Shown: positions 1-14,985 of the stretch, one piece after another
Layout: each line of letters begins with the position of its first letter
Position numbering within the stretch: the stretch's first letter is position 1
Assembly (NCBI GenBank): GCA_027340875.1
Contig: DAIENX010000058.1
Coordinates: 1 to 18,698 of the forward strand
Direction of reading: 5' to 3'
DNA length: 18,698 bases
Source of the DNA: Elusimicrobiota bacterium
GTDB lineage: Bacteria; Elusimicrobiota; Elusimicrobia; Elusimicrobiales; UBA9959
Program-made: the position numbers and the translations under genes
The notes under the pieces: model-generated
Database searches by the model: none
What the model saw: only the letters and a program-made list of their open reading frames with translations
What the model was told of the DNA's origin: nothing

Positions 1-93
1 CTCCGCGTCCCCGGCATAGGCGAGGCAGGTGTTCTTAGCCAGGCCCCGCTCCATGCCGAGATGCCGCGAGAAATCTTCCGCCAGCGGCCGCAT
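1..93 (-). CDS. xerD: Tyrosine recombinase XerD/XerC family, N-terminal 31 aa (runs off the left edge)
   Basis: Not in the ORF track. ATG at 93-91 overlaps the recA stop (TAATG). Hand translation [31 protein letters not shown] matches the XerD N-terminal pattern F..L..ERGLs.NT..AY..D. XerD vs XerC cannot be fully resolved from 31 aa. Confidence 0.8.
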   Translation of the reverse strand, partial: MRPLAEDFSRHLGMERGLAKNTCLAYAGDAE

Positions 94-1178
94 TACTTGC
101 GGGCTACTTTTTCGCGCTTATCTGCCTTCTCCGCGGGTTTCTCTTCCTGCGCGGGCGCCGCTGCGGCCGCGGGCTTCGGCGCCGGCTTGGGCATGAACCG
201 GGCGCGCAGCTCGGTCTCTATCTCCTTCGCCACGTCCTGGTGCAGCCTGAGGTAGTCCTTGGCGTTGTCGCGGCCCTGGCCTATGCGGTCGCTCTTGTAG
301 ATGTACCAGGTGCCGGACTTTTCCAGCAGGCCGCACTCCACGCCCATGTCGAGCAGGCAGCCCTCGGTGGAGATACCCTCGCCGTTGACCATCTCGAACT
401 CGGCCTGGCGGTAGGGCGGCGCGACCTTGTTCTTGACCACCTTCACGCGGATGCGCGCGCCGGTAACGACTTCGGCCTTCTTGATGGTCTCTATCTTCCT
501 GATGTCCATGCGCACGGAGGAGTAGAACTTGAGCGCGAGGCCGCCGGGCGTGGTCTCGGGGTTGCCGAACATCACGCCTATCTTGTGGCGGATCTGGTTG
601 ATGAACATCACGGACGTCTTGGTGGACGCCACGATGGAGGTGAGCTTGCGCAGCGCCTGGCTCATAAGTCTCGCCTGCAGGCCCACGTGCAGGTCGCCCA
701 TCTCGCCCTCTATCTCGGCCTTGGGCACGAGAGCGGCCACCGAGTCTATCACGATGATGTCCAGCGCGCCCGAACGCACCAGCTTCTCGGCTATCTCGAG
801 GGCCTGCTCGCCGGAGTCGGGCTGGGAGATCAGCAGGTTGTCCACGTCAACGCCCAGCTTCTGCGCGTAGATAGGGTCCAGCGCGTGCTCGGCGTCTATG
901 AACGCGGCCATGCCGCCGTTCTTCTGCGCCTGCGCTATCACGTGCAGGGTCAAAGTGGTCTTGCCGGAAGCCTCCGGGCCGTATACCTCTATCACGCGGC
1001 CGCGGGGCAGGCCGCCCACTCCGAGCGCCAGGTCCAGGCTCAGCGCGCCGGTGGGTATGACCTCCACCTTCATCTTGGCGCTGCGCTCGCCCAGCTTCAT
1101 GATGGCCTCTTTGCCGTAGCTCTTCTCTATCTGCGACAGCGCCGCTTCCAGCGCCCTGCTCTTCTCGTCGTTAACCAT
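93..1178 (-). CDS. recA: Recombinase RecA (361 aa)
   Basis: Walker [60 protein letters not shown] at 1192-1187. Confidence 0.99.
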
Positions 1179-1300
1179 GATATAGAACCTCCGTGTAATT
1201 TAAATCCTATGCAAATAGTTTACACTCTCATCCCGTCAAGGGCGTGTCGGGATAAAAATCGTGAAAAAATATTTTTTCTGACAGACGCTCACCATGTATT

Positions 1301-1328
1301 ATGTTAACATTTTCCCTGAAAAAGTAAA
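1301..1328 (-). promoter_or_regulatory. Candidate recA promoter
   Basis: Minus strand TTTACT (1328-1323), N16, TAACAT (1306-1301), preceded by TGn (extended -10). Lies just downstream of the 1355-1388 hairpin. Weak match. Confidence 0.3.
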
Positions 1329-1354
1329 GTCCACTTTTGGAGATGTTTCCCAAG

Positions 1355-1388
1355 AGATAAAGCCCTTCGCATGCAAAGGGCTTTATCT
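1355..1388 (-). terminator. Intrinsic terminator after the microprotein gene
   Basis: Perfect 13-bp inverted repeat AGATAAAGCCCTT-N8-AAGGGCTTTATCT, 23 nt past the TAG at 1412, with a T-rich 3' arm and tail on the minus strand. Confidence 0.7.
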
Positions 1389-1411
1389 GGCGCGCGCACT
1401 ATACTGGCAAC

Positions 1412-1534
1412 CTAGTTCCGCTTTTTTATGCGTTCAACAACAGTGGTACTAGGGCGGGACCGAGCAACTTTTACAGGAATAAATAAGCCTGTATTCGCAT
1501 CTCGGCCAATCAAAAATGATTTGCCTTTAGCCAT
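1412..1534 (-). CDS. Unannotated 40-aa basic microprotein MAKGKSFLIGRDANTGLFIPVKVARSRPSTTVVERIKKRN
   Basis: Below the ORF-track cutoff. ATG at 1534, TAG at 1414-1412. SD AAGGAGGT (1547-1540) 5 nt upstream, near-consensus promoter upstream and terminator downstream. 10 K/R vs 2 D/E. Confidence 0.85.
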   Translation of the reverse strand: MAKGKSFLIGRDANTGLFIPVKVARSRPSTTVVERIKKRN

Positions 1535-1592
1535 GGCACACCTCCTTCTTGTTAAAGATCCATGAGCCCATGCTCACAGCTACTACCCTTGT

Positions 1593-1621
1593 AGTATAAA
1601 GGATTTTCCCGTGTTTGTCAA
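1593..1621 (-). promoter_or_regulatory. Sigma70-type promoter for the microprotein gene
   Basis: Minus strand TTGACA (1621-1616), N17, TATACT (1598-1593). Confidence 0.8.
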
Positions 1622-1635
1622 GTATTAAGGAGATA

Positions 1636-1664
1636 TTGACTTTAGCACTTTAATATATTATCCT
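1636..1664 (+). promoter_or_regulatory. Sigma70-type promoter giving a leaderless transcript of the LexA-like gene
   Basis: TTGACT (1636-1641), N17, TATCCT (1659-1664). The expected start 7 nt later is the A of the ATG at 1671. No SD near the ATG. Confidence 0.7.
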
Positions 1665-1670
1665 TTATAT

Positions 1671-2327
1671 ATGCACCCTATACAAGAGAAGCTCCTCAAC
1701 CTTTCCAAGGGAACGAACCTCGCCCAGATCAGCCTGCGCGAGATGGCCGCGGCCATCGGCCTGCCGGCCGAGTCCCCCCAGAAGATAAAGCACCATCTGC
1801 AGCAGCTGGAGAAGAAGGGCTTCCTATCCATAGACCGCGCCAAGGGCCTGATGGAGAAGGCTTCCCTGCTGCCCGGCCTCGCCAGCGGCCTGCTCAAGGA
1901 GGCCTCCTCGCTGTTCTCCATACCCATAGTCGGCACCGCCAACTGCGGACCCGCCACTATCTACGCCGAGCAGAACTTCGAGGGCTTCCTGCGCGTCTCG
2001 GGACGGCTGCTGGGGCGCTCGACCCCGGCCGGCCTGTACGCCATAAAGACCAACGGCTCTTCGATGAACCGCGCCGAGATAGGCGGCAGGAAGATAGAGG
2101 ACGGCGACTACGTGGTGATAGACAGCGGCAGGCGGGAGCCGGCCAACAACGACATAGTGCTGGCCATCATAGACAACAAGGCCACCATAAAGCGCTTCAT
2201 TGACGACAGGGCGAACGGCCAGGTGATACTGAAGGCGGACTCCTCCTACGACTACGAGCCCATCTATCTGCACCCGGACGACGACTTCCTGATAAACGGC
2301 AAGGCCATAGCAGTCATCAAGCACTGA
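1671..2327 (+). CDS. LexA/CI-like transcriptional repressor (N-terminal HTH plus S24 self-cleaving peptidase), 218 aa
   Basis: SLREMAAAIG...KIKHHLQQLEKKGFL winged-HTH-like N-terminus. IPIVGTANCGP cleavage loop (C92-G93), catalytic Ser in NGSSM (S131), IEDGDYVVID, catalytic Lys in ATIKRF (K174). Recognition helix is non-canonical, so lexA is not assigned. Confidence 0.9.
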   Translation: MHPIQEKLLNLSKGTNLAQISLREMAAAIGLPAESPQKIKHHLQQLEKKGFLSIDRAKGLMEKASLLPGLASGLLKEASSLFSIPIVGTANCGPATIYAEQNFEGFLRVSGRLLGRSTPAGLYAIKTNGSSMNRAEIGGRKIEDGDYVVIDSGRREPANNDIVLAIIDNKATIKRFIDDRANGQVILKADSSYDYEPIYLHPDDDFLINGKAIAVIKH

Positions 2328-2344
2328 AACTCCGTATAACGCCT

Positions 2345-2364
2345 CCGCGGCAGGGCCGCGGTTT
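2345..2364 (+). terminator. Possible weak terminator after the LexA-like gene
   Basis: CCGCGGC-AGG-GCCGCGG hairpin followed by only TTT. Confidence 0.4.
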
Positions 2365-2392
2365 GACCTGAGCGGGCAAATTTGAGTAGTAT
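2363..2392 (+). promoter_or_regulatory. Promoter for the SWIB gene
   Basis: TTGACC (2363-2368), N18, TAGTAT (2387-2392). SD AAGGAG precedes the ATG at 2428. Confidence 0.55.
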
Positions 2393-2427
2393 TAGGGCAG
2401 AACAGGATTTATCCAAGGAGAACACAT

Positions 2428-2676
2428 ATGGCGAACCCTAAATTCATGAAAGAGATGCAGCCGGACGCGGACCTGGGTGCCGTTATCGGCAACGAGCCCG
2501 TCGCCCGCCCCACCGCGGTCAAGAAGATCTGGGACTATATCAAGAAGAACGGCCTGCAGGACAAGGTCAACAAGCGCAACATCAACGCCGACGAGAAGCT
2601 GCTGAAGGTCTTCGGCGGCAAGAAGCAGGTCACGATGTTCGAGCTGGCCGGCATACTCGGCAAGCACCTGAAGTAA
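2428..2676 (+). CDS. Stand-alone SWIB/MDM2 domain protein (82 aa)
   Basis: PDADLGAVIG..PVARPTAVKKIWDYIKKNGLQD..NKRNINADEKLLKVFGGKKQVTMFEL is the typical bacterial SWIB signature. Strong SD. Confidence 0.93.
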   Translation: MANPKFMKEMQPDADLGAVIGNEPVARPTAVKKIWDYIKKNGLQDKVNKRNINADEKLLKVFGGKKQVTMFELAGILGKHLK

Positions 2677-2693
2677 ACGGTCAAGCCACGGGA

Positions 2694-2724
2694 AAAGACC
2701 GCCCCCCGCCCGGGGGCGGTCTTT
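2694..2724 (+). terminator. Intrinsic terminator after the SWIB gene
   Basis: 13-bp stem AAAGACCGCCCCC-N5-GGGGGCGGTCTTT. Confidence 0.7.
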
Positions 2725-2763
2725 CCATTGCCGTACCCGGCCCCGGGACCGGTAAAGCCGCCC

Positions 2764-3819
2764 ATGGAGCAGAAGAAAGCCCCGGGGACCAGCCTGTTCT
2801 CCAGGCTCCTGGTCCCGACCATCCCCTCGGCGAACAAGCCGCCGCAGAAGCTGCGCTTCGCGCTGCAGCTGGCCTTCCTGCTGCTGATAGCCCTGATAGG
2901 GCTGCAGTTCCATAATTTCGTCTCGGCCATACTGGAGGGGACCGCCCTGCCGCGGCGCCCCCCCGGGGTGGAGGGCTTCCTGCCCATCAGCGCGCTGATG
3001 AGCCTGAAGCTTTTTCTCTCCACGGGCGAGATACACTGGGCCCACCCCGCGGCGCTGTTCATACTGCTGGCGATAATAGCCATGTCCTTCGCGGTGGGCA
3101 AGTCTTTCTGCGGCTGGCTCTGCCCGTTCGGCTTCCTCTCCGAGCTGCTGCACAAGGCCCGGAAGCACCGCGCCCCCGCGGCCAAGCCGCCCGCGGACTG
3201 GCTGGACTACAGCCTCGGCGCGGTCAAGTACATCATCCTCGCCTTCTTCGCCTTCGTCATCTTCATATCGATGAACGCGGACAAGGTACGGGCCTTTCTG
3301 GGCGACGACTACAACAAGATAGCCGACATCAAGATGTACTTCTTCTTCGCCCATATCAGCTTCTTCGCGGCCATGGTGATAACCGCGCTCTTCGTGCTCA
3401 GCTACTACCTGCCCTATTTCTGGTGCCGCTACCTCTGCCCCTACGGGGCACTGCTGGGCCTGGTCTCGCTGGCCAGCCCTTCGCGCATCAGGCGCTACGA
3501 CCCGCCCTGCATCTCCTGCGGCAAATGCGCCGCGGTCTGCCCGCAGCGCATAGCCGTGGACAGGAAAACGGCCGTATATTCGGACGAATGCACCTCCTGC
3601 GGCCTCTGTCTGGACGTCTGCCCCGCGCCCGGCTCGCTGGAGCTGCGGATCTGGAAGACCAAGCTGCGTATAAAGACCATATTGCTGCCGCTTATAGTGA
3701 CCGCGATCTTCTGCCTGGTGACCGGCTGGGCCATGCTGGCCGGCCACTGGAAGAGCGGCGTCACAGAGGACGACTACCGCAAGCTGGGCGTTTTCTACGA
3801 CAGCCTGGAGCACCCTTAA
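2764..3819 (+). CDS. Membrane 4Fe-4S binding protein (YccM/NapH-like polyferredoxin)
   Basis: FCGWLCPFG and WCRYLCPYG motifs, two ferredoxin motifs (CISCGKCAAVCP, CTSCGLCLDVCP) and several hydrophobic helices. ATG 2764 preferred over TTG 2728; start uncertain. Confidence 0.88.
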   Translation: MEQKKAPGTSLFSRLLVPTIPSANKPPQKLRFALQLAFLLLIALIGLQFHNFVSAILEGTALPRRPPGVEGFLPISALMSLKLFLSTGEIHWAHPAALFILLAIIAMSFAVGKSFCGWLCPFGFLSELLHKARKHRAPAAKPPADWLDYSLGAVKYIILAFFAFVIFISMNADKVRAFLGDDYNKIADIKMYFFFAHISFFAAMVITALFVLSYYLPYFWCRYLCPYGALLGLVSLASPSRIRRYDPPCISCGKCAAVCPQRIAVDRKTAVYSDECTSCGLCLDVCPAPGSLELRIWKTKLRIKTILLPLIVTAIFCLVTGWAMLAGHWKSGVTEDDYRKLGVFYDSLEHP

Positions 3820-3921
3820 GTCCTATGCGGAACGGGGGCCTTTCGCTTCTAGGCAGACCCCGCCCACATTGTTAGAATATTTTCTAATATCTCCGCGGTC
3901 TCACGGCCGCAAGGACCACCA

Positions 3922-4920
3922 ATGAAGAATAAACTGCTGATATCACTTTCCGCTTCCCTGGCGCTTTCGCCCTGCGCGATGGCACTGGACGCCGGAGTAT
4001 CCTTCGACGGCGGCGGCTCGCTGGCCGCTTTTTCCAGGCAGTCCGGCATACCGGTGCCGCTTCCCGGCCTCCGCGAGGCCGCGGAGCTGCCCGCCGTCTG
4101 CGCCCACGGCGCCGCCGGGTCCCTGGACGGCGCCGCCTTCGCGGCGGCCGTGGCCGCCAGCGACGTGGTCTACGTGGGCGAATCCCACGACCAGGCCAAC
4201 GACCACCTGGCCCAGCTGGAAGCGCTGAAAGCCCTTTACGCGGTCCGCGGCGCCAAGGTCGCAGTAGGCTTCGAGATGCTCAACGTCACGCTGCAGCCCG
4301 TGCTGGACGAATACGCCTCCGGCGCCATCACCGAGGCCGAGTTCCTGAAAAAGGCCGACTGGCAGAAGGAATGGGGCTTCGACTTCAACCTCTACAAGCC
4401 CATCTTCGACTTCATCCGCGGGAACAAGCTCTCCGCCGTCGCCCTTAACCTGCCGAAGAAGGTGGTCTCCCACATAGCCATGAAGGGCCTGGACGCCCTG
4501 CCGCCGGAAGAGGCCGCCTACCTGCCTGCGGACATGCAGGTCACGACCAACGCCAGGTACATCGCCTACATAAAGGAATCCTTCGACGGCCACATGTCCG
4601 ACATGTTCAAGTTCGAGAACTACCTGGCCGCGATGTCCGCCTGGAACGAGGCCATGGGCGCCAACATGGCCGCCTTCCTCAACGCCAACAAGGGCTACGC
4701 GGGCCTGGTAGTGGCCGGCAGCGGCCACGTCATCTACAACGCGGCCATCCCGGCCTCGCTCAAGGCCAGGGCCCCGTGGGCGAAAGACCTCTCCTTCTTC
4801 ATGAAGGGCGCGGACTCCTGCCCCGCCGCGGTACAGGAAGGCGACGCGGACCTGGCGGACTTCGTCTGGTACGTGCCGCACACCGCCGAAGAGGAGAAGG
4901 GCCTGCGCCTGCCGCTCTGA
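3922..4920 (+). CDS. Exported ChaN-family (haem-uptake associated) protein
   Basis: Signal peptide; DVVYVGESHD..DHLAQLEAL, VGFEML, WGFDFNLYKPIFDF, VALNLP, VVAGSGHV match the ChaN family pattern. Confidence 0.8.
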   Translation: MKNKLLISLSASLALSPCAMALDAGVSFDGGGSLAAFSRQSGIPVPLPGLREAAELPAVCAHGAAGSLDGAAFAAAVAASDVVYVGESHDQANDHLAQLEALKALYAVRGAKVAVGFEMLNVTLQPVLDEYASGAITEAEFLKKADWQKEWGFDFNLYKPIFDFIRGNKLSAVALNLPKKVVSHIAMKGLDALPPEEAAYLPADMQVTTNARYIAYIKESFDGHMSDMFKFENYLAAMSAWNEAMGANMAAFLNANKGYAGLVVAGSGHVIYNAAIPASLKARAPWAKDLSFFMKGADSCPAAVQEGDADLADFVWYVPHTAEEEKGLRLPL

Positions 4921-4934
4921 GCTGGAACGCCCCG

Positions 4935-4968
4935 AATAAAAAAGCCGCCGGAAGGCGGCTTTTTTATT
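4935..4968. terminator. Bidirectional intrinsic terminator between the ChaN gene and glgB
   Basis: AATAAAAAAGCCGCC-GGAA-GGCGGCTTTTTTATT: 15-bp stem with A/T tracts on both sides, between convergent genes. Confidence 0.92.
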
Positions 4969-4984
4969 TACCAGGATGGGCGCC

Positions 4985-6889
4985 CTAGCCACAGCTCTTG
5001 AAGAAGCAGACCGACAGCGGCGGCAGCGTGAGGTTCAGGGAGTAGGGCTTGCCGTGCGCCGGCGCCGATTCCGCGTCCATCCCTCCCATGTTCCCGAGGC
5101 CGGAGCCCCAATAGGCCGTGGCGTCGCTGTTGAGCATCTCCTTCCAGAAGCCGCCGCGCGGCACGCCGACCCTGTAGCCGTAGCGCGGCACCGGGGTGTA
5201 GTTGCAGACCACCAGCACCGCCTCGGCGGGGTCGCCGTTCCTGCGCAGGAAGGCGGAGACGCTCTGCTCGGCGTCGTTGGCGTCCACCCATTCGAAGCCG
5301 TCCGGACTGCAGTTCTTGTCGTGAAGGGCAGGTTCGGCCGCGTAGAGCGCGTTCAGGTCCCTGACCCAGGCCTGCACCCCTGCGTGCTGCGGGTAGACGG
5401 CCTGGTGCCAGTCCAGGCTCTTATCGTGGTCCCACTCGGCCCACTGGCCGAACTCGCCGCCCATGAACAGCAGCTTCTGGCCGGGCTGCGCGTACATGTT
5501 GCCGAAGAGCAGCCGCAGGTTGGCGAACTTCTGCCAGTCGTCGCCCGCCATCTTCTGCATCAGCGAGCCCTTGCCGTGCACCACCTCGTCGTGCGACAGC
5601 GGCAGCACGAAGTTCTCCCCCCACGCGTACAGCATGCGGAAGGTCAGGTCGTTGTGGTGGTAGCGGCGGAACACCGGGTCCTTGGAGAAATAGCGCAGCG
5701 TGTCGTGCATCCAGCCCATGTCCCACTTGAGCCCGAAGCCGAGGCCGCCCAGGTAGGTGGGCCGCGAGACCATAGGCCAGGCCGTGGACTCCTCGGCGTA
5801 GGTCTGCGCGTCCGGGAAGTTCTCGTATACCACGTGGTTGAACTGCTTCAGGAAGGCTATGGCCTCCAGGTTCTCGTTGCCGCCGTACTTGTTCGGCACC
5901 CACTCCCCGGCCTTGCGGGAATAGTCGAGATACAGCATCGAGGCGACCGCGTCCACGCGCAGGCCGTCTATGTGGTACTTGTCCAGCCAGAACATGGCCG
6001 ACGACAGCAGGAAGCTCTTCACCTCGTTTCGGCCGAAGTTGAAGATGGCGCTGCCCCAGTCCGGGTGGAAGCCCTGGCGCGGGTCGGCGTGCTCGTAGAG
6101 GCAGGTCCCGTCGAACCTGGCCAGGCCGTGCGCGTCGGAGGGGAAATGCGCCGGCACCCAGTCGAGTATCACGCCTATGCCCGCCTGGTGCAGCTTGTCC
6201 ACCAGGTACATGAAGTCCTGAGGGCCGCCGTAGCGCGCGGTGGGCGCGAAATAACCCGTGGTCTGGTAGCCCCAGGAGCCGTAGAAGGGGTGCTCGGTCA
6301 CCGGCATCAGCTCCACGTGGGAGAAGCCCATGTACTTCAGGTAGCCTGGCAGCTCCTCGGCCAGCTCGCGGTATGTCAGGAAGCGCTCGGGGTCGGCCGG
6401 GCTGCGGCGCCAGGAGCCCAGGTGCAGCTCGTAGATGGAAACGGCGCTCTTAAGGCCGTTCTTGGAGCCGCGGACCTTCATCCAGTCAGCGTCCTGCCAC
6501 TCGTACTCGAGGTCGGCCACCACGGAGGCCGTCTTGGGGGCCTCCTCGGCGGCGAAGGCCATGGGATCGGCCTTCTCCGCGGAGAAGCCGTCGAAATTGG
6601 AGACGATGAAATACTTGTAGTTCTGCCCCGGCTTCACCCCGGGGACGAAGCCCTCCCAGATGCCGGAGCTGCCGCGCTGGTGCAGCTGGTTCTGCGACTT
6701 GTTCCAGTAGTTGAAGTCGCCGGTCACGAACACCTGTTTCGCGTTGGGAGCCCAGACGGCGAAGTGCGTGCCGTCGCGCCCGTCCACGGTGGCCGGGTGG
6801 GCGCCCAGCTTGTCGTAGAGCCTCAGGTGGTTGCCTTCGTTGAAGAGGTAAAGGTCCTGATCGGTGAGCAGCTTTATATCGTTAGCCAT
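4985..6889 (-). CDS. glgB: 1,4-alpha-glucan branching enzyme (GH13), 634 aa short form
   Basis: [63 protein letters not shown]. Confidence 0.97.
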
Positions 6890-6933
6890 GGTGCCGTCCT
6901 CTATGCTGAATAATACAATATTGCCAGCCTTGA

Positions 6934-7443
6934 CTACTTTTCTGCGGCAGGCGCTTCCGTTTTCAGGCCGAATGAATCCGGGATGTCCTTCGCCAGCAGC
7001 TGCGGATACCTATCCTCCATGCCGTTGGAAAGCAGCTTCTCCGTGAGATTATCATAAAGCAGCAGCGGCTCCTCGCCGCCGGCGAAGCGGATGGCCGGTT
7101 CCTTCTGCACCCAGGACCCGAGAACCAGCAGGTAACGGGAATCGGGGGACCAGAGCACGCGCGCGTCCCCCTCCTTCCGGAGATGGTTGGCGTCGCCCGA
7201 CTTGTATACCTTCCAGGCCGGCGCCAGCGCCCAGTTCCTGCCTACGGAGAGCATCACGTTCTTGTCCGGAAAGCCGTAGAAGTTCTCCAGCACGGCCACC
7301 CACCTGCCGTCGGGAGAGACGAACTTCCTCGCCGGCACCCGGTCCCCGCCCCCGAGCAGTAGCGGCAGCAGCAGGCCGGCCGCCATGCCCAGCAGGACCA
7401 GCGCCGCAGCGCCGCCGAGAAGATATTTCAGGATACGCTTCAT
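6934..7443 (-). CDS. Hypothetical membrane-anchored or exported protein (169 aa)
   Basis: Basic N-terminus plus hydrophobic helix; two PD40/TolB-like turns ([20 protein letters not shown]). Confidence 0.7.
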
Positions 7444-7503
7444 GCTATTTTACCCGGGCGGACATATCCGTAATGATAACAAAAAGCCGCGGCCGTGAAC
7501 CCT

Positions 7504-7533
7504 TTCACATTGGGCCGCAATAGTTGCTACTAT
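7504..7533 (+). promoter_or_regulatory. Promoter for a probably leaderless rsmH transcript
   Basis: TTCACA (7504-7509), N18, TGc-TACTAT (7528-7533). Seven nt downstream is the A of ATG 7540. No SD. Confidence 0.55.
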
Positions 7534-7539
7534 AGTCGC

Positions 7540-8607
7540 ATGCCTGAAGAGACTCCCAGGCCGCACAGGCGGCGCGTACGCTACTCCGGCACGCACCCGC
7601 GCCGCTTCGAGCAGAAGTACAAGGAGCTGGACCCCGCGAAGTACGCGGACCAGATAGAGCACATCATAGCCAAAGGCCTCACGCCGGCCGGCACCCACCG
7701 CCCCATCTGCGTGGAAGAGATCCTGGAGATACTCTCCCCGAAGCCCGGCGAGACCGCCTTCGACGCCACGCTGGGCTACGGCGGCCACGCGCGCAAGCTG
7801 CTGCCGAAGCTGCTGCCGGGCGGCAGGTATTTCGCGGTGGACGTGGACACGGTGGAACTGCCGAAGACCGAGGCCCGCCTGCGCGCGGAGGGCTACGGCC
7901 CCGAAGTCCTGACGGTCAGGAAGATGAACTACGCCGGCATACTGGGCCTGCTGGGCGAGGCCGGCGGCGGCTTCGACTGCGTGCTCGCGGACCTGGGCGT
8001 CTCGTCGATGCAGCTCGACAACCCGGAGCGCGGCTTCACCTACAAGGCCGACGGCCCGCTGGACCTGCGCCTGAACCCGGAAAGGGGACAGCCCGCCTCG
8101 GAATTCATAAAGGCCGTCACTGCCGACAAGCTCAGGAGCATCCTGGAGGAGAACGCCGACGAGCCGTTCGCGGCGCAGGCCGCGAAGGCCATAAAGGAAG
8201 CCCCCCTCCCCGTAAAGACCACCTCGGGCCTGGCCAAGGCCGTGCGTGCCGGCCTGGCTTCCGTGTCGCCGAAGCTCAAAGAAGAAGAGATCAAGAAGTC
8301 CCTGCAGCGGGTGTTCCAGGCCCTGCGCGTAGAGGTCAACGGCGAGTTCAGCGCGCTGGACCGCTTCCTCGAGGCCCTGCCGTGGGCCGTAAAGCCCGGC
8401 GGCAGGATAGCCATACTCACTTTCCATTCCGGCGAGGACCGCCGGGTGAAGAAATCCTTCTTCACGGGCGAAGAGGCGGGCGTCTACTCCTCCGTGGCGC
8501 AGACCCCGGCCCGCCCGTCCGCGGCCGAGCGGCGCTCCAACCCGCGCTCCTCCTCGGCCAAGCTGCGCTGGGCCGTGCGCTCCGACAGGCCGGCCGGAGG
8601 ATCATGA
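7540..8607 (+). CDS. rsmH: 16S rRNA m4C1402 methyltransferase RsmH (MraW), variant with N-terminal extension
   Basis: DATLGYGGHA, LADLGVSSMQLD..ERGF, GPLDLRLN, FQALRVEVNGE, ILTFHSGEDRRVK, NPRSSSAKLR. ATG 7540 preferred over GTG 7495 because the latter lies upstream of the promoter. Confidence 0.92.
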   Translation: MPEETPRPHRRRVRYSGTHPRRFEQKYKELDPAKYADQIEHIIAKGLTPAGTHRPICVEEILEILSPKPGETAFDATLGYGGHARKLLPKLLPGGRYFAVDVDTVELPKTEARLRAEGYGPEVLTVRKMNYAGILGLLGEAGGGFDCVLADLGVSSMQLDNPERGFTYKADGPLDLRLNPERGQPASEFIKAVTADKLRSILEENADEPFAAQAAKAIKEAPLPVKTTSGLAKAVRAGLASVSPKLKEEEIKKSLQRVFQALRVEVNGEFSALDRFLEALPWAVKPGGRIAILTFHSGEDRRVKKSFFTGEEAGVYSSVAQTPARPSAAERRSNPRSSSAKLRWAVRSDRPAGGS

Positions 8608-9314
8608 AAAAACTTATGGCCCTGTGCGCCGCCGCGGCGGCCTTCGGCTGCGCTTCACGTCCGGCGGTCACCGGCTCCATGGAGAAGGCCGCCCGCCAGG
8701 TCCTTAACCAGTCCGAAGCCGGCAGGAAGGCCGTGGGCGAGTACGACCGCTACAAGAAGGAGTTCGACAGGTACGGCAAGCTGGCCGGGATCCTCAGGAA
8801 ATACCACGACAGCAAGACCCTCGACGACTCGGACCTGCTGGAGGTGCTCAGGCAGACCGGCGTGGTGAAGGGCGCGCCCGCTCCGAAAGGCAAAAAGCCG
8901 CCAGGACAATTCCCCGTGCGGACGTACAAGGGCGGCTTCCGCTGGCCCATGGACGCGGGCATAGTCAGCTCGGAGTTCGGGCCGCGCTGGGGCAAGATGC
9001 ACCAGGGCACGGACATCGCGGCCGACATGGGCGTGCCGATAAAGGCCTCGGCCGCGGGCGAGGTCATCTATTCCGGGGACGGCATCTCAGGCTACGGCAA
9101 CGTGGTCATCCTGCGCCACGACAGCGATACCACCACCACCTACGCCCACAACAAGGCGCTGAAGGTGCGGGTGGGCGAGAAAGTGAAGGCCGGCCAGCTG
9201 ATAGCCCTGCTGGGCTCCACCGGCCACTCCACCGGGCCGCATCTGCATTTCGAGTTCCGCAAGGGCGACGCCCCGGTGAACCCGCGCACTATCCTGCCGA
9301 CGAGCAGGTTCTGA
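8604..9314 (+). CDS. M23 family metallopeptidase lipoprotein (236 aa)
   Basis: ATG 8604 overlaps the rsmH stop (ATGA) after GGAGG. Lipobox AFGC; Zn motifs HQGTD and STGPHLHFE; GYGNVVILRH. Confidence 0.9.
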   Translation: MKKLMALCAAAAAFGCASRPAVTGSMEKAARQVLNQSEAGRKAVGEYDRYKKEFDRYGKLAGILRKYHDSKTLDDSDLLEVLRQTGVVKGAPAPKGKKPPGQFPVRTYKGGFRWPMDAGIVSSEFGPRWGKMHQGTDIAADMGVPIKASAAGEVIYSGDGISGYGNVVILRHDSDTTTTYAHNKALKVRVGEKVKAGQLIALLGSTGHSTGPHLHFEFRKGDAPVNPRTILPTSRF

Positions 9315-9387
9315 CCCTTCGCCGCGCTCACGCGCGCGCCGCCCTGAACGCCTGCAGGCGCGTAGAGGTTTTTGTTTGTATGGGGTT

Positions 9388-10809
9388 CTAGTCGCCGCAG
9401 AAGATGCCGATCGCGCAGAGCACGTTCTGCCCTGACGGGGTGGAACCGAGGCTTTTGGAATCGGCCGGCCGCAAGGTCTTCTTGACCGTCTCCATCGAAA
9501 CGCCGTCCTTCGAACCGATGACGAGCCCCTTTACCGCCAGGTTAACCGGCGTAGCCGGCAGGTAAATCACCATGGCCGCCATGGCGGCGGGATTCCCTTC
9601 GGCCGCGTTCTTCTCCACGTACATATAGGTTTTACCGCTCTCGTAGACCGCCGGCGCCACGACCCGCAGGACGGCCTTCTTGGTCAGCACGCAGGCGCCG
9701 TGCAGGCCGAAGGTGTCGGGGCAGCTACGGACCGCGTCCTCGACCTGGTCGTTGACGAAATATTTGTGCTCCAGCGCGGCCAGGTTGTTGCTCTCATAAC
9801 CGGAGGCGGGCCCATGGGTATCGTCGCGCAGCGCCAGCAGGTCGTTGAAGTTGATATCCCTGCCCACCAGGGCCTTGAAATCCTTCTCCATCTTCACTAT
9901 CTCTTTGCGGCTGGCCGGCTTATCGTAGTTATGCGGGGCTTTCATCTTCTGCGGGTCCACTATGTTGAGCGCCTCATAGAGGCTGCAGTTCTGGGCCCGG
10001 CACTTGTCCAGCTTGGCCTGCTGGGCCGCGGTGATCTTCTTGCCGTTCCAGACGAAATTGCCCTCGGGAGCCGGGCCGTCGCCCATGCTCGGAGGCGCCG
10101 TGAAAGTGAGCTTCTTCTTGGGGCCGCGCGCCTCGGGCGCGGGAGGGGCGCCGCCTAATTTCGCTTCCGACAGCTCCACCCCGCCCTCCTGGTCGCCCTT
10201 CCTGCCGGAACCGCCGTCGTAAACGGCGCCCATGCCGGACGCGTCCATGTCCTTCATTTTCCCGTACTTCTTATTGGCGGCGGCGGAGATCTTCTCCTGT
10301 TTCTTGGCGCGCTCCTTCAGCTGTTTGGCCTCCTCTTCGCCGTTCTGCGGCCGGGGCGCCAGCGTGATGTTCTGCTCCTTCAGCCAGGCTATGTCGTCCT
10401 GGTCGTAGATCCCTTTGTCCACCCTGGCCTTTATAGCGGCCAGCTTGTCCCGCTTCTCCTGGACCGCGGCGGCCGCGGCCTCCCCGTCCTTGAAACAGGC
10501 GCCGATGTATTCCAGGTCCCCGTCGCTCACGGCCAGGAGGGCCTTTCCGTCTATCTTGCCGCGCGAGACGGACAGCTTGTCCTGCGCCTTGCCGCAGGCG
10601 CGCAGGGCCTTGTTCAGCACCTTGGTCTGCTGCTTCGCGTCCAGCTCGTCCCAGCTGCTCTCGTCCTCGTCCGTGAACGCCCCGATCCAGCGCCAGACCG
10701 TATAGTCCTGCGACACTTCCGAGCCCCAGCGGACCTTGACCGCCTCCCCGGGGAAGGCGGGCTGCGCCAGGAAAAGGACCGCAAGGACGAGCAGCTCTAT
10801 CGGTTTCAT
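9388..10809 (-). CDS. Secreted hypothetical protein (473 aa)
   Basis: Start moved to MKPIELLVLAVLFLAQPAFP (signal peptide), downstream of a promoter. Helical charged N-half, Pro/Gly linker, Cys-containing C-half. No family recognised. Confidence 0.75.
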   Translation of the reverse strand: MKPIELLVLAVLFLAQPAFPGEAVKVRWGSEVSQDYTVWRWIGAFTDEDESSWDELDAKQQTKVLNKALRACGKAQDKLSVSRGKIDGKALLAVSDGDLEYIGACFKDGEAAAAAVQEKRDKLAAIKARVDKGIYDQDDIAWLKEQNITLAPRPQNGEEEAKQLKERAKKQEKISAAANKKYGKMKDMDASGMGAVYDGGSGRKGDQEGGVELSEAKLGGAPPAPEARGPKKKLTFTAPPSMGDGPAPEGNFVWNGKKITAAQQAKLDKCRAQNCSLYEALNIVDPQKMKAPHNYDKPASRKEIVKMEKDFKALVGRDINFNDLLALRDDTHGPASGYESNNLAALEHKYFVNDQVEDAVRSCPDTFGLHGACVLTKKAVLRVVAPAVYESGKTYMYVEKNAAEGNPAAMAAMVIYLPATPVNLAVKGLVIGSKDGVSMETVKKTLRPADSKSLGSTPSGQNVLCAIGIFCGD

Positions 10810-10831
10810 ATATGGATACTTATCGATTAAT

Positions 10832-10860
10832 AGCCTACCAGAGGGCGGGCCAACTTTCAA
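10832..10860 (-). promoter_or_regulatory. Promoter for the secreted hypothetical gene
   Basis: Minus strand TTGAAA (10860-10855), N17, TGg-TAGGCT (10837-10832). Confidence 0.55.
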
Positions 10861-10904
10861 GGCCCATTCCGCATCGCCTGGACCGCTGACGATAGGGGAG
10901 ATCA

Positions 10905-10915
10905 CCCCCCCCCCC
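10905..10915. repeat. C11 homopolymer in a divergent intergenic region
   Basis: atcaCCCCCCCCCCCaagag, read directly. Confidence 0.9.
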
Positions 10916-10994
10916 AAGAGGCCTATTACGGACCCTCGGCCGGTACCGCGGCAGCCCCTGCCCCGCGCTCCGGAGTTCTAGCCCTAACCGGCTC

Positions 10995-11023
10995 TTGCAT
11001 CGTCCCTCCCTTAGTGGTATGCT
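10995..11023 (+). promoter_or_regulatory. Promoter for the baeRF-family gene
   Basis: TTGCAT (10995-11000), N17, TGg-TATGCT (11018-11023). Confidence 0.55.
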
Positions 11024-11112
11024 CTCCTTGGGGGTTCAGGGTAAGTCACCGATATACACGCCGCCGCCCGCGCCAGCGGGCCGGACGCCCGCTTATAATC
11101 ACAGGGGGAGCT

Positions 11113-12273
11113 ATGCTATTGATGAAAAGAGAAGAGCTCAAGGAATTGATGGACGAGCGGATGGGGCCCTGCGTCTCCATCTACATGCCTACCGTAAAGG
11201 GGAGCATCGAGACCAGGCAGAACCCGATAAAGTTCCGCAAGCTGCTGAAGGAGGCGGAGTACAAACTGGCCGCGTCCGCGGTGAAGCGCGCCGATATCGA
11301 AGAGCTGACCGCGCCGGCGAGACGCCTGCTGCTGGACAACATGTTCTGGCAGTACCAGAACGGCGGGTTGGCGGTGTTCCTGTCGCGCCGCGTCAGGCGC
11401 GCTTTCACGCTGCCGCTGGAGTTCTCCGAGATGGCCGCCACGGGCGACAGGTTCTGCGTCAGGCAGCTGCTGCCGCTGTTCGCCGAGGACGGCCGGTTCT
11501 GCGTGCTGGCCCTGAGCCAGCGCTCGGTCAAGCTCTACCAGTGCAGCCGCTACAGCGTCTCCGAGCTGGACCTGCGCCAGGCGCCGAAGAGCATAACGGA
11601 CCTGCTGGAGCTTAACCCCGGGGAGAAGCAGCCGCAGTACCACTCCAACACGGTGGGGCGGGCGGCCGGAGCCCGCGGCCAGACCGCCTCTTTCCACGGC
11701 GGCGCCGAGGACGCGGACGACGCCAAGGAGAACGTGCTGTTCTATTTCCGCAACGTCAACCGGGCGGTGAACTCCATCCTGAACAACGCCGGCGGACCGC
11801 TGGTGCTGGCCGGGGTGGACTACCTCACCCGCATCTACGACAAGGCCAGCACCTACCCACGCCTGGCCGCCGGGCGCATACCGGGGAATCCCGCGGACCT
11901 AAGGCCGGAGGAGCTCAAGGACAGGGCCTGGGGAGTGGTGAAGCCGGAGTTCGAGCGCGAGGCCCGGACCGCCGTGGAACAGTACGAGCGGCTGCAGGGC
12001 ACCCCCCGAGCCTCCAACCACCTGGCGGCCATCCTGCAGGCGGCCGGAGAGAGCCGGGTGGGGACGCTGTTCGTCTCCGCGTCGGAGCAGCGCTGGGGTT
12101 TCTACGACGAAACCTCGGGGGTCATGGACCTGCACGGCAAGCCCGAGGCCTGCGATATGGAGCTGCTGGACCTCTGCGTGGCCCGGACGCTGGACCACGG
12201 CGGCAAGGTCTACGTGCTGGAAAAGGAAAGGATGCCGGGGCTGGCGCCAACAGCGGCCATCTTCCGCTACTGA
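11113..12273 (+). CDS. Bacterial archaeo-eukaryotic release factor-like protein (baeRF family 3/7-like; Balon-related)
   Basis: GPCVSIYMPT, QNPIKFRKLLKEA, FWQYQNGGLAVFL, FHGG, YFRNVNRAV, PLVLAGV, RVGTLFV, TLDHGGKVYVL..MP..AAIFRY. Start is 11113 or 11122 after GGGGGAG. Confidence 0.82.
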   Translation: MLLMKREELKELMDERMGPCVSIYMPTVKGSIETRQNPIKFRKLLKEAEYKLAASAVKRADIEELTAPARRLLLDNMFWQYQNGGLAVFLSRRVRRAFTLPLEFSEMAATGDRFCVRQLLPLFAEDGRFCVLALSQRSVKLYQCSRYSVSELDLRQAPKSITDLLELNPGEKQPQYHSNTVGRAAGARGQTASFHGGAEDADDAKENVLFYFRNVNRAVNSILNNAGGPLVLAGVDYLTRIYDKASTYPRLAAGRIPGNPADLRPEELKDRAWGVVKPEFEREARTAVEQYERLQGTPRASNHLAAILQAAGESRVGTLFVSASEQRWGFYDETSGVMDLHGKPEACDMELLDLCVARTLDHGGKVYVLEKERMPGLAPTAAIFRY

Positions 12274-12283
12274 GCCGGGAAAA

Positions 12284-12319
12284 GAGAAGGCCGGGCGCTT
12301 ACGGCGTCCCGGCCTTTTC
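12284..12319. terminator. Terminator between the convergent baeRF and cstA genes
   Basis: GAGAAGGCCGGG...CCCGGCCTTTTC stem with purine and pyrimidine tails. Confidence 0.7.
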
Positions 12320-12333
12320 ACGTCCCGGCACGG

Positions 12334-13959
12334 CTAGGCGGCGGCTTCCTCCGGGACGGGGGCTTTACGCAGCACCGCACGGGCGCTCTCGAAGATAACG
12401 GTCAGCGACAGCAGCAGCAGCACTGCGCCTATCACGGTGATCAGGTTCATGCCGGACTTGGCCAGCATGCTGACCAGCGCCCAGACGGTCATGACGGTCA
12501 TGAAGACCGCCGGCACCAGGATGATCCAGAGCGCCTTCACCTCCGTACGCTTGGCCCAGATGTAGATGATGACCAGCACCAGCGCGGCCAACAGCTGGTT
12601 GGTGACCCCGAACAGCGGCCAGATGAACTTCCAGGCCGGCACCGCGGCGCCGTCCGGCCCGGTCACGCTGATGTTCAGCAGCACTATCGGCAGGGCTACC
12701 GAGACGGCGGTGGAGAGCAGCCTGCTGACGACGGAATTGCCGGTATCGGTCAGCTCCTGGAAGATGTAGCGGGCTATGCGCGTGGCGCTGTCCAGCGTGG
12801 TCAACATGAAGGCCGAGATCACCAGCAGGCCGAACACGCGGCCCACGTCGGGGCTCATCCCGAGCAGCTCGGAGAAGCGGCCGAGACCCGCCGCGAAGAT
12901 CTGCGCCGGGGCCGCCTTGGCCAGCGCGTCGCCGGGGGCCAGCATCATTATGGTGCCCAGCGCTATCATGGCCACCACCGCCTCCAGCGCCATGCCGCCG
13001 AACCCGATGATCTTGGCGTCACGGGCCGAGGCCAGCTGTTTCGACGTGGTGCCGGAAGCCACGAGCGAGTGGAAGCCGGACACGGCCCCGCAGGCCACCG
13101 TGATGAACAGGAACGGTATCATGTCCCCCACGGCCGGCGCGGAGAAACCCTTCAGGGCCGGATAGGTTATGTGGTAGCCGCCGAACATGACCCCGACGAG
13201 GCCGATGAACAGCGAGGCATAGAGCAGGTAACTGGACAGATAGTCGCGCGGCTGCAGCAGGAACCAGACGGGCAGTATGGACGCGACGAAGCAGTAGCCC
13301 ATCAGCAACCAGACCCAGGCTCCCTTGCCGAGCGACAGGAACGGGAACTTGAAGCTGAGCAGCATGAAGGCCCCAAGCGCCAGCAGGGCTACCGCCGTGG
13401 AGGCCTTCAGCCCCGTCTTGGCCCGGTAGACGGCCAGGCCGAAGGCCACGGCCACCGCTATATAGGCCAGGCTGGTCTCGGCCACCGCGGCCTCCTTGGC
13501 GAAGGCGTCAGCCGTGATGTCGGCGAAGACAGCCACCACGTACATCAGCGCCAGCCAGGTGAAGAGCAGGAACAGCTTGTAGGTGCGCCTGTTGATGTAC
13601 TTGCGCGCGATCTCCGAGATGGAGCGGCCGCTGTGGCGCAGCGAGATGATCAGCGAGGAGAAGTCGTGCAGGCCGCCGATGAAGATGGTGCCGACCACCA
13701 CCCAGACCGCGGCCGGCAGCCAGCCGAAGGCCGCGGCCGCGATCAGCGGTCCGACTATCGGCCCGGCGCCGGCGATGGACGAGAAGTGGTGGCCCAGCAG
13801 CACGTACTTGTTGGTGGCGACGTAGTCTATGCCGTCGGCCATCGTTGCCGAAGGGACCGGTTCGTCCTTCAGCACCGAGTAGCTCTTCTCCAGGAAGCCG
13901 CCGTAATAGCGGTAGCCCGCCCAGAGGGATACGAGGATGACGATAGCGAATATTGCCAT
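12334..13959 (-). CDS. cstA: Carbon starvation protein A family transporter (541 aa)
   Basis: DGIDYV, VLLGHHFSSIAGAGPIVGP, FGWLPA, GGLHDF, LPVWFLLQPRDYLS, FITVACGAVSGFHSL, FMLTTLDSATRIARY, IWPLFGVTNQLLA. Confidence 0.95.
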   Translation of the reverse strand: MAIFAIVILVSLWAGYRYYGGFLEKSYSVLKDEPVPSATMADGIDYVATNKYVLLGHHFSSIAGAGPIVGPLIAAAAFGWLPAAVWVVVGTIFIGGLHDFSSLIISLRHSGRSISEIARKYINRRTYKLFLLFTWLALMYVVAVFADITADAFAKEAAVAETSLAYIAVAVAFGLAVYRAKTGLKASTAVALLALGAFMLLSFKFPFLSLGKGAWVWLLMGYCFVASILPVWFLLQPRDYLSSYLLYASLFIGLVGVMFGGYHITYPALKGFSAPAVGDMIPFLFITVACGAVSGFHSLVASGTTSKQLASARDAKIIGFGGMALEAVVAMIALGTIMMLAPGDALAKAAPAQIFAAGLGRFSELLGMSPDVGRVFGLLVISAFMLTTLDSATRIARYIFQELTDTGNSVVSRLLSTAVSVALPIVLLNISVTGPDGAAVPAWKFIWPLFGVTNQLLAALVLVIIYIWAKRTEVKALWIILVPAVFMTVMTVWALVSMLAKSGMNLITVIGAVLLLLSLTVIFESARAVLRKAPVPEEAAA

Positions 13960-14004
13960 AAAACCGTAGCGGTCCCTTGAGCACGGGACCGGCCGCGCCG
14001 GGGA

Positions 14005-14985
14005 TCAGAATCCCCGGGAGCGGCGGCCGAACCTGACCGTCACAGAGACACGGTGGGTGTTGCCCAGGTCCCCCATAGGGGAATAGGCGTAATCTATAAG
14101 GTAGCTGGACATGTCCATGCCCAGGCCGGCGGAGATGCCGGAGGAGTCGCCCGTGGCGGCCGTACGGTAGCCCAGTCTCATCGAGAAGGCCGCGCCCTTG
14201 TCATAGGAGGTGGTCATCTCGACCCCGGCGTTGCCGTAGATCCCGGCATCCCTCAGATAATTCACGTCGGTGAAGAAAGCCGCGCTCTTGTGCATGCGGC
14301 GGTCGCGCCCGAACGGCAGGTGATAGGCCCCGCCGAGCCTGACGTTGAGCGGCAGCGGGTCGGACCGGCTCCTGAACTTCAGCGGCCCGCCGAAGTTCTG
14401 CGCCGAGAGGCCGAAATCCAGTTTTCCCGGGATAGCGGCGTACCTCAGCCCGCCGTCCAGCGCGAGCGCGGAGGCGTTGGCCGTCTCCAGGCGGCTTGAG
14501 ATGTACTTGGCCGCGAACCCCAGGTCCAGCCGGGAGGCCACCCGCCGGGCGTAGCCCAGCATTACGGCGGCATCGGAAGCCGAATAGGAGGCGGAGAGGT
14601 CGTTGCCGAACTTGTCGTACTTGTCTATGGAAGGGCAGTCCAGATAGCTTATACCGAAGCCCACCACTCCTGAATACCGTTTGGCGGCGAAGGCCAGGCT
14701 GGAGTAGCCGATGTCGCCTATCCAGCGGGCATGGGAGAAGAACAGCTCGGGACCTGTCACCGCGGCCAGGCCGGCCGGGTTATAGAACAGCCCGGAAGCC
14801 CCGGAGAGCGCGGCCCCCGTCTCGCCCAGCGCGGACGACCTGGCGTCCACGCCTATGCGCAGGAACTGGCCGCCGGATACTCCCTCGTCGGCGGAGAAGG
14901 CCGGCAGCGCCAGCGGCGCCAGCGACAGCGCGGCCAGAACGCAACCCGCGAACAGCCTGCGACCCATCATGTTCGTCCGCGTCAT
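14005..14985 (-). CDS. PorV/PorQ-family outer-membrane beta-barrel protein
   Basis: Signal peptide, then FLRIGVDARSSALGE...LFYNPAGLA, alternating beta-strand pattern, IDYAYSPMGDLGNTHRVSV, terminal Phe. ATG overlaps the upstream stop (ATGA). Confidence 0.85.
   Translation of the reverse strand: MTRTNMMGRRLFAGCVLAALSLAPLALPAFSADEGVSGGQFLRIGVDARSSALGETGAALSGASGLFYNPAGLAAVTGPELFFSHARWIGDIGYSSLAFAAKRYSGVVGFGISYLDCPSIDKYDKFGNDLSASYSASDAAVMLGYARRVASRLDLGFAAKYISSRLETANASALALDGGLRYAAIPGKLDFGLSAQNFGGPLKFRSRSDPLPLNVRLGGAYHLPFGRDRRMHKSAAFFTDVNYLRDAGIYGNAGVEMTTSYDKGAAFSMRLGYRTAATGDSSGISAGLGMDMSSYLIDYAYSPMGDLGNTHRVSVTVRFGRRSRGF

Follow-up and report, generated by a model that had tools for sequence, protein, structure and literature searches.

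Analysis of the window (the whole stretch of 18,698 nt, positions 1 to 18,698 of the forward strand of contig DAIENX010000058.1, assembly GCA_027340875.1, Elusimicrobiota bacterium) indicated that the recA-repressor region is a LexA-recA divergon carrying an insertion, in which the promoter that drives recA in relatives probably now drives a 40-residue protein. We propose, giving the whole model a probability of roughly 60%, that DNA damage would lead to cleavage of the repressor and to a microprotein transcript mostly ending at a hairpin, with recA and xer being driven from a WYL-type promoter.

Misassembly of the locus was ruled out: in runs X2 and X3, which belong to one study together with the possible source run, contigs covering at least 1195-2109 showed 0 differences. 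On the minus strand, recA (93..1178, 361 aa, above the TIGR02012 cut-off) is followed on its 3' side by a Xer-type recombinase gene starting at 93 (an integrase-like ORF at 1-93), an order also found in locus L001 and on contig C7. The surroundings of the repressor and the microgene consist of recA, xer, SWIB and ferredoxin genes, and no repressor relative was found in the viral contigs searched, so that the earlier statement that this is no obvious prophage stood. Some further features of the sequence were recorded. G000:C7:1-328 duplicates positions 1-328 of the window (the end of recA and the start of xer) with 96% identity, being either a strain variant or bin contamination. A stand-alone SWIB/MDM2-domain gene (2428-2676) has its own promoter-like site (2363-2392) and an 85%-identical paralogue on C70, and the far end of the window encodes, according to the ORF list only, a probably secreted repeat-rich protein of 1,234 aa (14982-18686) and then a 326-aa gene (14005-14985). 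An Rfam search gave no match in 1100-2690 and a single sub-threshold match at 2695-2800, over a GC-rich hairpin.

The repressor gene (1671..2327, plus strand) encodes a LexA-type protein of 218 aa with a winged HTH, an S24 domain, a putative C92-G93 scissile bond and an S131/K174 dyad. An earlier note on this DNA had considered it cI-like, but its N-terminus is a LexA winged helix (PF01726, 27.2 bits, cut-off 23.7) and not the helix-turn-helix of CI/XRE proteins. The S24 domain scored 67 bits (PF00717), the best PDB matches are LexA proteins, the PHROG matches cover the S24 part, and a search of the genome gave no S24 protein besides this repressor. Its score fell below the LexA equivalog cut-off (TIGR00498, 79.5 against 110.95 bits), which leaves it outside canonical LexA. 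Across an alignment of 82 homologues, G93, S131 and K174 never vary (82/82), and residue 92 is a cysteine in 69 and an alanine in 13. As autocleavage determinants, the available part of a published account (PMC8565304) names Ala-Gly, or Cys-Gly in UmuD, together with a Ser-Lys dyad; from this family knowledge and the conserved residues we infer RecA-dependent autocleavage at C92-G93, in keeping with the RecA-cleavable repressor postulated earlier. Of 104 matches to the repressor the best 80 were considered, and among these, homologues with 60-75% identity are scattered over Nitrospirota, Acidobacteriota, Patescibacteria, Pseudomonadota and Bacteroidota. No repressor match was obtained in 13 of 36 genus genomes, and when the phylum of G339 was searched at E <= 1e-60, a single genome out of 401 (the centre genome itself) had a member of the clade, so it is sporadic there. 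These sequences are best explained by a LexA clade that has spread horizontally and includes the present repressor, its members being accompanied by two promoters placed back-to-back and by a single candidate operator of 16 bp.

The two promoters lie with their -35 boxes 14 nt apart, as had been noticed before. The divergent one (1593..1621, minus strand) is of the sigma-70 type (TTGACA-17-TATACT, 11/12 consensus matches) and faces the microgene here and recA in relatives, its sequence being identical in 27/27 loci (26 sister loci and the window). The predicted repressor promoter (1636..1664, plus strand, TTGACT-17-TATCCT) has its -10 box 6 nt before the ATG, as expected for a leaderless mRNA. 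Promoter-like sites numbered 5 in 1000-3000, against 1.4 +/- 1.1 in shuffled sequences. The leaderless transcript suggested by the earlier note appears, by sequence, to be a trait of the whole repressor clade, where an SD was found in 0/55 loci and a -10-like hexamer, ending 5-8 nt short of the repressor start, in 49/55, the latter being a raw count with no chance control.

A candidate 16-bp operator, YYGT-CAAGTWTT-AMGG (1615..1630), overlaps the divergent -35 box. SOS boxes have the form CTGT-N8-ACAG, and the geometry of the candidate is similar. Its core, GTCAAGTATTAAGG, is present in the window and all 26 sister loci (27/27), and a related form of the box was found in 28/29 distant clade loci from many phyla, with a search pattern that itself required the -35 letters. 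Because the left half of the box is the -35 box, this conservation is partly promoter-driven; the right half, situated in the gap that separates the -35 boxes, is also maintained from phylum to phylum. Genome-wide, an asymmetric matrix gave 24.6 at position 1615 and 16.8 for the next best site, while a symmetrised matrix was unselective and ranked other genomic sites above that of the window. If the box is the operator, the genome holds a single strong site and not the many-repair-gene operators of a canonical LexA, its repair genes bearing a WYL-type motif instead of the box; this suits the purely local regulon that the earlier note had envisaged. A perfect CCTT-N8-AAGG box at 1587-1602 was also considered as a second operator and was left uncounted, since it is not conserved in relatives.

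Comparison with relatives revealed what the divergent promoter usually serves. In 26 Elusimicrobiales-type sister loci (L001-L025 and L077, repressor identity 82-93%), the repressor is divergent from recA in every case (26/26), across 169-395 nt, and in none of them (0/26) did an SD-led ORF of at least 20 codons follow TTGACA-17-TATACT. The expectation that homologous repressors would face a divergent small ORF therefore largely failed, all 26 having recA in that place. In a quick tree, with SH-aLRT support and without bootstrap, the window repressor is nested within the 27-row sister group (SH-aLRT 98). Since it is nested among recA-facing loci devoid of the microgene, the microgene represents a gain, and its ancestral retention was ruled out by parsimony. 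A microprotein profile search of the other family genomes was negative as well (0/79).

The gained sequence is a lineage-specific insertion of ~240 bp and low G+C content (1330..1570, ends approximate) which comprises, on the minus strand, an SD, the microgene and a hairpin. The complete minus-strand unit reported before in the recA-repressor spacer (promoter, SD, 40-codon ORF and 13-bp hairpin) could be confirmed in the sequence. GC3 is 0.37 in the microgene versus 0.86-0.90 in neighbouring genes, and the -10 box and the palindrome ATGTTAACAT are separated by 281 nt in the window versus 42 nt in L002, which gives the window ~239 extra bases. Neither a target-site duplication nor a mobility gene was seen at the insertion. 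The insert occurs in more than a single sample, since run X6, from another study, has a contig with a copy ~89% identical (31 substitutions and 6 gaps over 1297-1644) that continues to the recA start. In runs X5 and X6 there are also contigs that pass over the insert. The recA-lexA spacers of L002 and L004 hold other insertions, of about 145 and 45 bp, which share a short repeat-like sequence; this spacer tolerates insertions. The palindrome itself (1301..1310), a single copy in the genome, lies between the two recA promoters and is kept in 18/26 sister loci, being absent from L018-L024 and L077; it may act as an extended -10 on either strand or as a protein site.

The second of these promoters is proximal to recA (1217..1251, minus strand) and of the WYL-activator type. 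It consists of a CGWCA-N6-TGWCG dyad without a -35 box and of a -10 box (1222-1217) placed 10 nt after TGWCGG, and it was found in 27/27 Elusimicrobiales loci. The earlier note had missed both this promoter (about 1249-1217) and the palindrome. Throughout the genome the motif has 24 copies, all at spacing 10; any other spacing gave 0-3 sites, and 3 Markov simulations gave 0. Seventeen downstream ORFs were scanned, 13 of which could be given a family, and the motif was seen to precede recA, ssb, radC, a comM-like ATPase, a UvrD-type helicase and PD-(D/E)XK nuclease genes, as well as radical SAM, hsdM and ORF6N genes. It was present in 42/42 genus and 70/79 family genomes, with 0-1 in reversed-pattern controls (genus set). 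WYL promoters are characterised by a GTC-containing element that keeps a constant spacing to the -10 box and is enriched at repair genes, as is the case here, and the available parts of the respective reports give tGTCgg(N10)tA(N3)T as the PafBC motif (PMC8635444) and CGWCA-N5-TGWCG as the DdaA motif (PMC12392091). The genome has one HTH-WYL-WCX gene (G000:C79:845-1795), the candidate activator, which found matches in 38/42 genus and 63/79 family genomes. Many ORF6N/KilA-N genes on C68, C69 and C80 also carry a WYL-type promoter, and a PIF1-like helicase with a C-terminal WYL domain (L252:148-1740, G000:C2) is encoded about 1.4 kb downstream of another.

The microgene (1412..1534, minus strand), preceded by the ribosome-binding site AAGGAGGT, encodes a basic protein of 40 aa (pI 11.8) that we assign to a GRDAxTGxF family and for which a strand-strand-helix-strand mini-domain is predicted. 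A single-sequence word search gave no match, but an exhaustive search returned 119 clusters at 50% identity and a profile 3,449 clusters at 90%, among 5,268 candidates, and with so many matches the 40-codon ORF must be a real gene. Members are named 'hypothetical' and once, in one UniRef entry, 'Multidrug transporter', an unlikely name for a soluble basic 40-mer. No Pfam, PHROG or PADLOC family, no meaningful NCBIfam match and no PDB sequence match were obtained, and the atlas look-alikes scored < 0.9 and were all without a name. The structural model (pLDDT 89.5) predicts strands at 6-12 and 31-37 and one 6-residue helix (21-26); with no HTH in the model and no HTH family match, the Cro-like role once proposed for the microprotein lost its footing. 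Fold searches with the model found nothing at E <= 0.001 (best Z 2.7), so the fold is neither named nor shown to be new. Several members are tandem duplications, and such two-copy homologues would suggest that the protein forms dimers.

The family is sporadic (8/301 Elusimicrobiota genomes and 6/401 genomes of the phylum of G339); annotated phages gave no match and plasmids 4 unannotated ones. Its neighbourhoods were examined in the best 80 of 386 metagenome loci, which gave 66 non-redundant loci with 194 nearby ORFs scanned. Defence, toxin-antitoxin, IrrE-type or mobile genes were found in 30/66, or in 30/44 of those with any Pfam hit, these being raw counts without a background control and many of the loci being short. 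Restriction-modification or methylase genes were counted in 10 loci, toxin-antitoxin-type genes in 9 and IrrE/M78 peptidase genes in 5, in addition to loci with CBASS, Thoeris, E2, AbiC or mobile-element genes. Several viral loci adjoin, by eye, apparent IS1595-type transposases, which Pfam confirmed for L228. No convincing S24 neighbour appeared in the best 80 of the 386 metagenome loci or in 45 viral loci, the sole S24 match near a metagenome microgene (E 0.025) falling on the microgene's own frame; the peptide mostly occurs apart from such repressors. Judged from these sequences, the microgene and its terminator together act like a portable unit of defence islands. As a tentative suggestion, to which we give rather less than even odds, its product could be an accessory factor of islands for defence and damage response, basic and binding nucleic acids; alternatively, it could serve as a protein-binding adaptor.

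Among 29 distant repressor clade loci (L026-L054), the slot opposite the repressor is variable. The same microgene occupies it in two (L030 and L047), and in L249 a weak match to the microgene family lies just downstream of a 50%-level repressor homologue. The repressor-microgene pair of the earlier note therefore does recur (2/29), and is absent from all 26 sister loci and from 27/29 distant ones. Since the microgene family is rare, its three placements directly behind a LexA-clade promoter (here, in L030 and in L047) are hardly expected by chance, although those of L030 and L047 may go back to one origin. Other cargo comprises a C5 methylase, Thoeris ThsB, a CBASS-type 1TM effector, an MBL hydrolase, DUF3892 and DUF2188; there are also about ten unnamed proteins of 58-106 aa, and several loci show no clear divergent ORF. 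The unnamed proteins of 58-68 aa in L027, L032, L037, L038, L046 and L051 have no Pfam family. In L045 and L054 (2/29) the repressor faces recA. Both are gammaproteobacterial, belong to another branch of the clade (L045:3619-4651, L054:3724-4651) and have repeated TGT(A/C)AAG units in their promoters, the arrangement suggesting a second capture of recA by the repressor clade. The model that best fits these sequences is that of a mobile LexA cassette with swappable cargo, which would here have been rerouted from recA to the microprotein.

On this basis, DNA damage would generate RecA-ssDNA filaments, the repressor would cleave itself at C92-G93, and the 1621-1593 promoter would open, so that any gene opposite a LexA-clade repressor would become DNA-damage inducible. 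In the Elusimicrobiales genus, the cassette would have settled head-to-head with recA, which would thereby have gained a distal LexA-repressed promoter; in the relatives, repressor cleavage would boost recA directly, beside the proximal promoter serving an ssDNA-sensing WYL activator. In the lineage of the window, the ~240-bp unit (SD, 40-codon gene and hairpin) would then have been inserted between the two promoters, turning the LexA-controlled transcript into one that yields chiefly the microprotein and is damped before recA, with recA and xer still driven from the WYL promoter.

How much of this transcript reaches recA depends on the hairpin 3' of the microgene (1355..1388, minus strand), an inverted repeat with 17-nt arms (94%) and 13 perfect pairs. 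It is terminator-like and possibly bidirectional, with folding z-scores of -2.3 on the minus and -2.1 on the plus strand and -25.5 kcal/mol for a 72-nt segment containing it. Its U-tract is weak, being short and partly within the stem, and a terminator scan did not flag it, so read-through into recA may be large. With a poor terminator, LexA would control microgene, recA and xer together and the ancestral dual control of recA would be intact, a reading that would also accommodate the other insertions in the spacers of L002 and L004 and the invariance of the distal promoter in 27/27 loci, which suggests that recA needs it. We consider it unlikely, given the 13 perfect pairs and the folding energy, and given that terminator-like hairpins are common after members of the microgene family (43/132 loci, not de-duplicated, against 3/396 shuffles). 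Moreover, termination before recA would be affordable because recA has its own proximal promoter.

We hold two further readings to be improbable. According to the earlier note, the locus would be a dedicated, conserved two-gene switch of the cI/cro type releasing a microprotein that might feed back on it, for which the lambda-like promoter geometry, the leaderless start, the pairs in L030 and L047, the weak family match beside the L249 homologue and the ~89%-identical insert from another study can be adduced. As a conserved unit this switch is largely refuted by the lack of the microgene in 26/26 sister and 27/29 distant loci and of a convincing S24 gene near the microgene in metagenomes (best 80 of 386 loci) or viruses (45 loci), and the LexA-type winged helix, a peptide without HTH and the failure to find repressor relatives in viral contigs speak against it too. 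It is just as doubtful that the divergent promoter is not damage-regulated at all, the box reflecting autoregulation or promoter strength and the microgene being a near-neutral constitutive passenger. The overlap of the box with a consensus -35, the sporadic family (8/301 and 6/401 genomes) and the apparent IS1595-type transposases at several viral loci would be expected under this reading, but the right half of the box is conserved across phyla between the -35 boxes, the catalytic and cleavage residues are invariant (82/82), and the cargo of the clade is rich in defence and damage-response genes. The rerouting of a LexA-controlled recA promoter to the microprotein is thus the reading we prefer.

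In the literature we found no account of this clade of LexA repressors, of its box or of the family of microproteins; the clade or the family could be contained in Burroughs and Aravind 2020 (J Bacteriol), in a 2017 paper on Patescibacteria LexA or in supplements; work on LexA in Elusimicrobia, judged by title, contained nothing on the locus. Already known are LexA cleavage, WYL activation, dual recA promoters and damage-induced defence operons. Two things are apparently uncharacterised, namely a LexA clade that spans phyla and combines a predicted operator with exchangeable defence cargo, and a family of microproteins with thousands of members and no Pfam model; the locus would illustrate a DNA-damage regulon that can be rewired by a 240-bp insertion. 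In its broadest form our proposal is speculative, and we would bet against it rather than for it: an undescribed mobile LexA clade would be a plug-in RecA-triggered cassette with its own 16-bp operator, which places defence genes, unnamed microproteins or recA under damage control across many phyla and so does with one protein what CapH/CapP do with two. The GRDAxTGxF microprotein, which would have come under this cassette and under IrrE-type sensors in independent events, would be an overlooked damage-induced effector of defence islands that has here taken over the LexA promoter of recA in a mainly WYL-driven lineage.

The PRM-PR region of lambda cI/cro combines back-to-back promoters, a leaderless repressor mRNA and an S24 autocleavage domain, all of which the locus resembles at the level of sequence only; unlike lambda, it has no XRE-type HTH, Cro-like partner or prophage, and no triple operator was seen. 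With the LexA/RecA SOS switch it shares a winged-helix and S24 repressor with an intact dyad. In contrast to canonical LexA, however, the repressor lies below the TIGR00498 cut-off, has a Cys-Gly scissile bond as in UmuD and has one candidate operator in the genome instead of a regulon; it is also leaderless and divergent from recA, and the microgene would intercept its LexA-type promoter. The recA genes of the relatives, with one LexA-type and one WYL-type promoter, recall the dual control in Mycobacterium, where the available part of the report (PMC8682763) describes one LexA promoter (P2) and one PafBC promoter (P1). As far as the accessible portions of the reports on DdaA (PMC12392091), DriD (PMC13004042) and PafBC (PMC8635444) indicate, the proximal recA promoter shares with these systems the half-sites, the fixed distance to the -10 box and the lack of a -35, and the genomic targets of the motif likewise include recA, ssb and a type I restriction-modification gene; compared with DdaA, the dyad spacer is here one base longer (N6) and the link to the activator is that of a candidate. 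Finally, CapH/CapP of CBASS sit, according to the available part of the preprint (bioRxiv 10.1101/2022.04.27.489752), divergent from defence, DUF2188 and DUF3892 operons, and are thus a damage-sensing repressor module facing swappable cargo (DUF2188, DUF3892) much as the present clade appears to be, microgene homologues adjoining HTH and IrrE/M78 genes in 5/66 loci; unlike CapH/CapP as portrayed there, the sensor proposed here would be one self-cleaving, RecA-needing S24 protein with no separate metallopeptidase.
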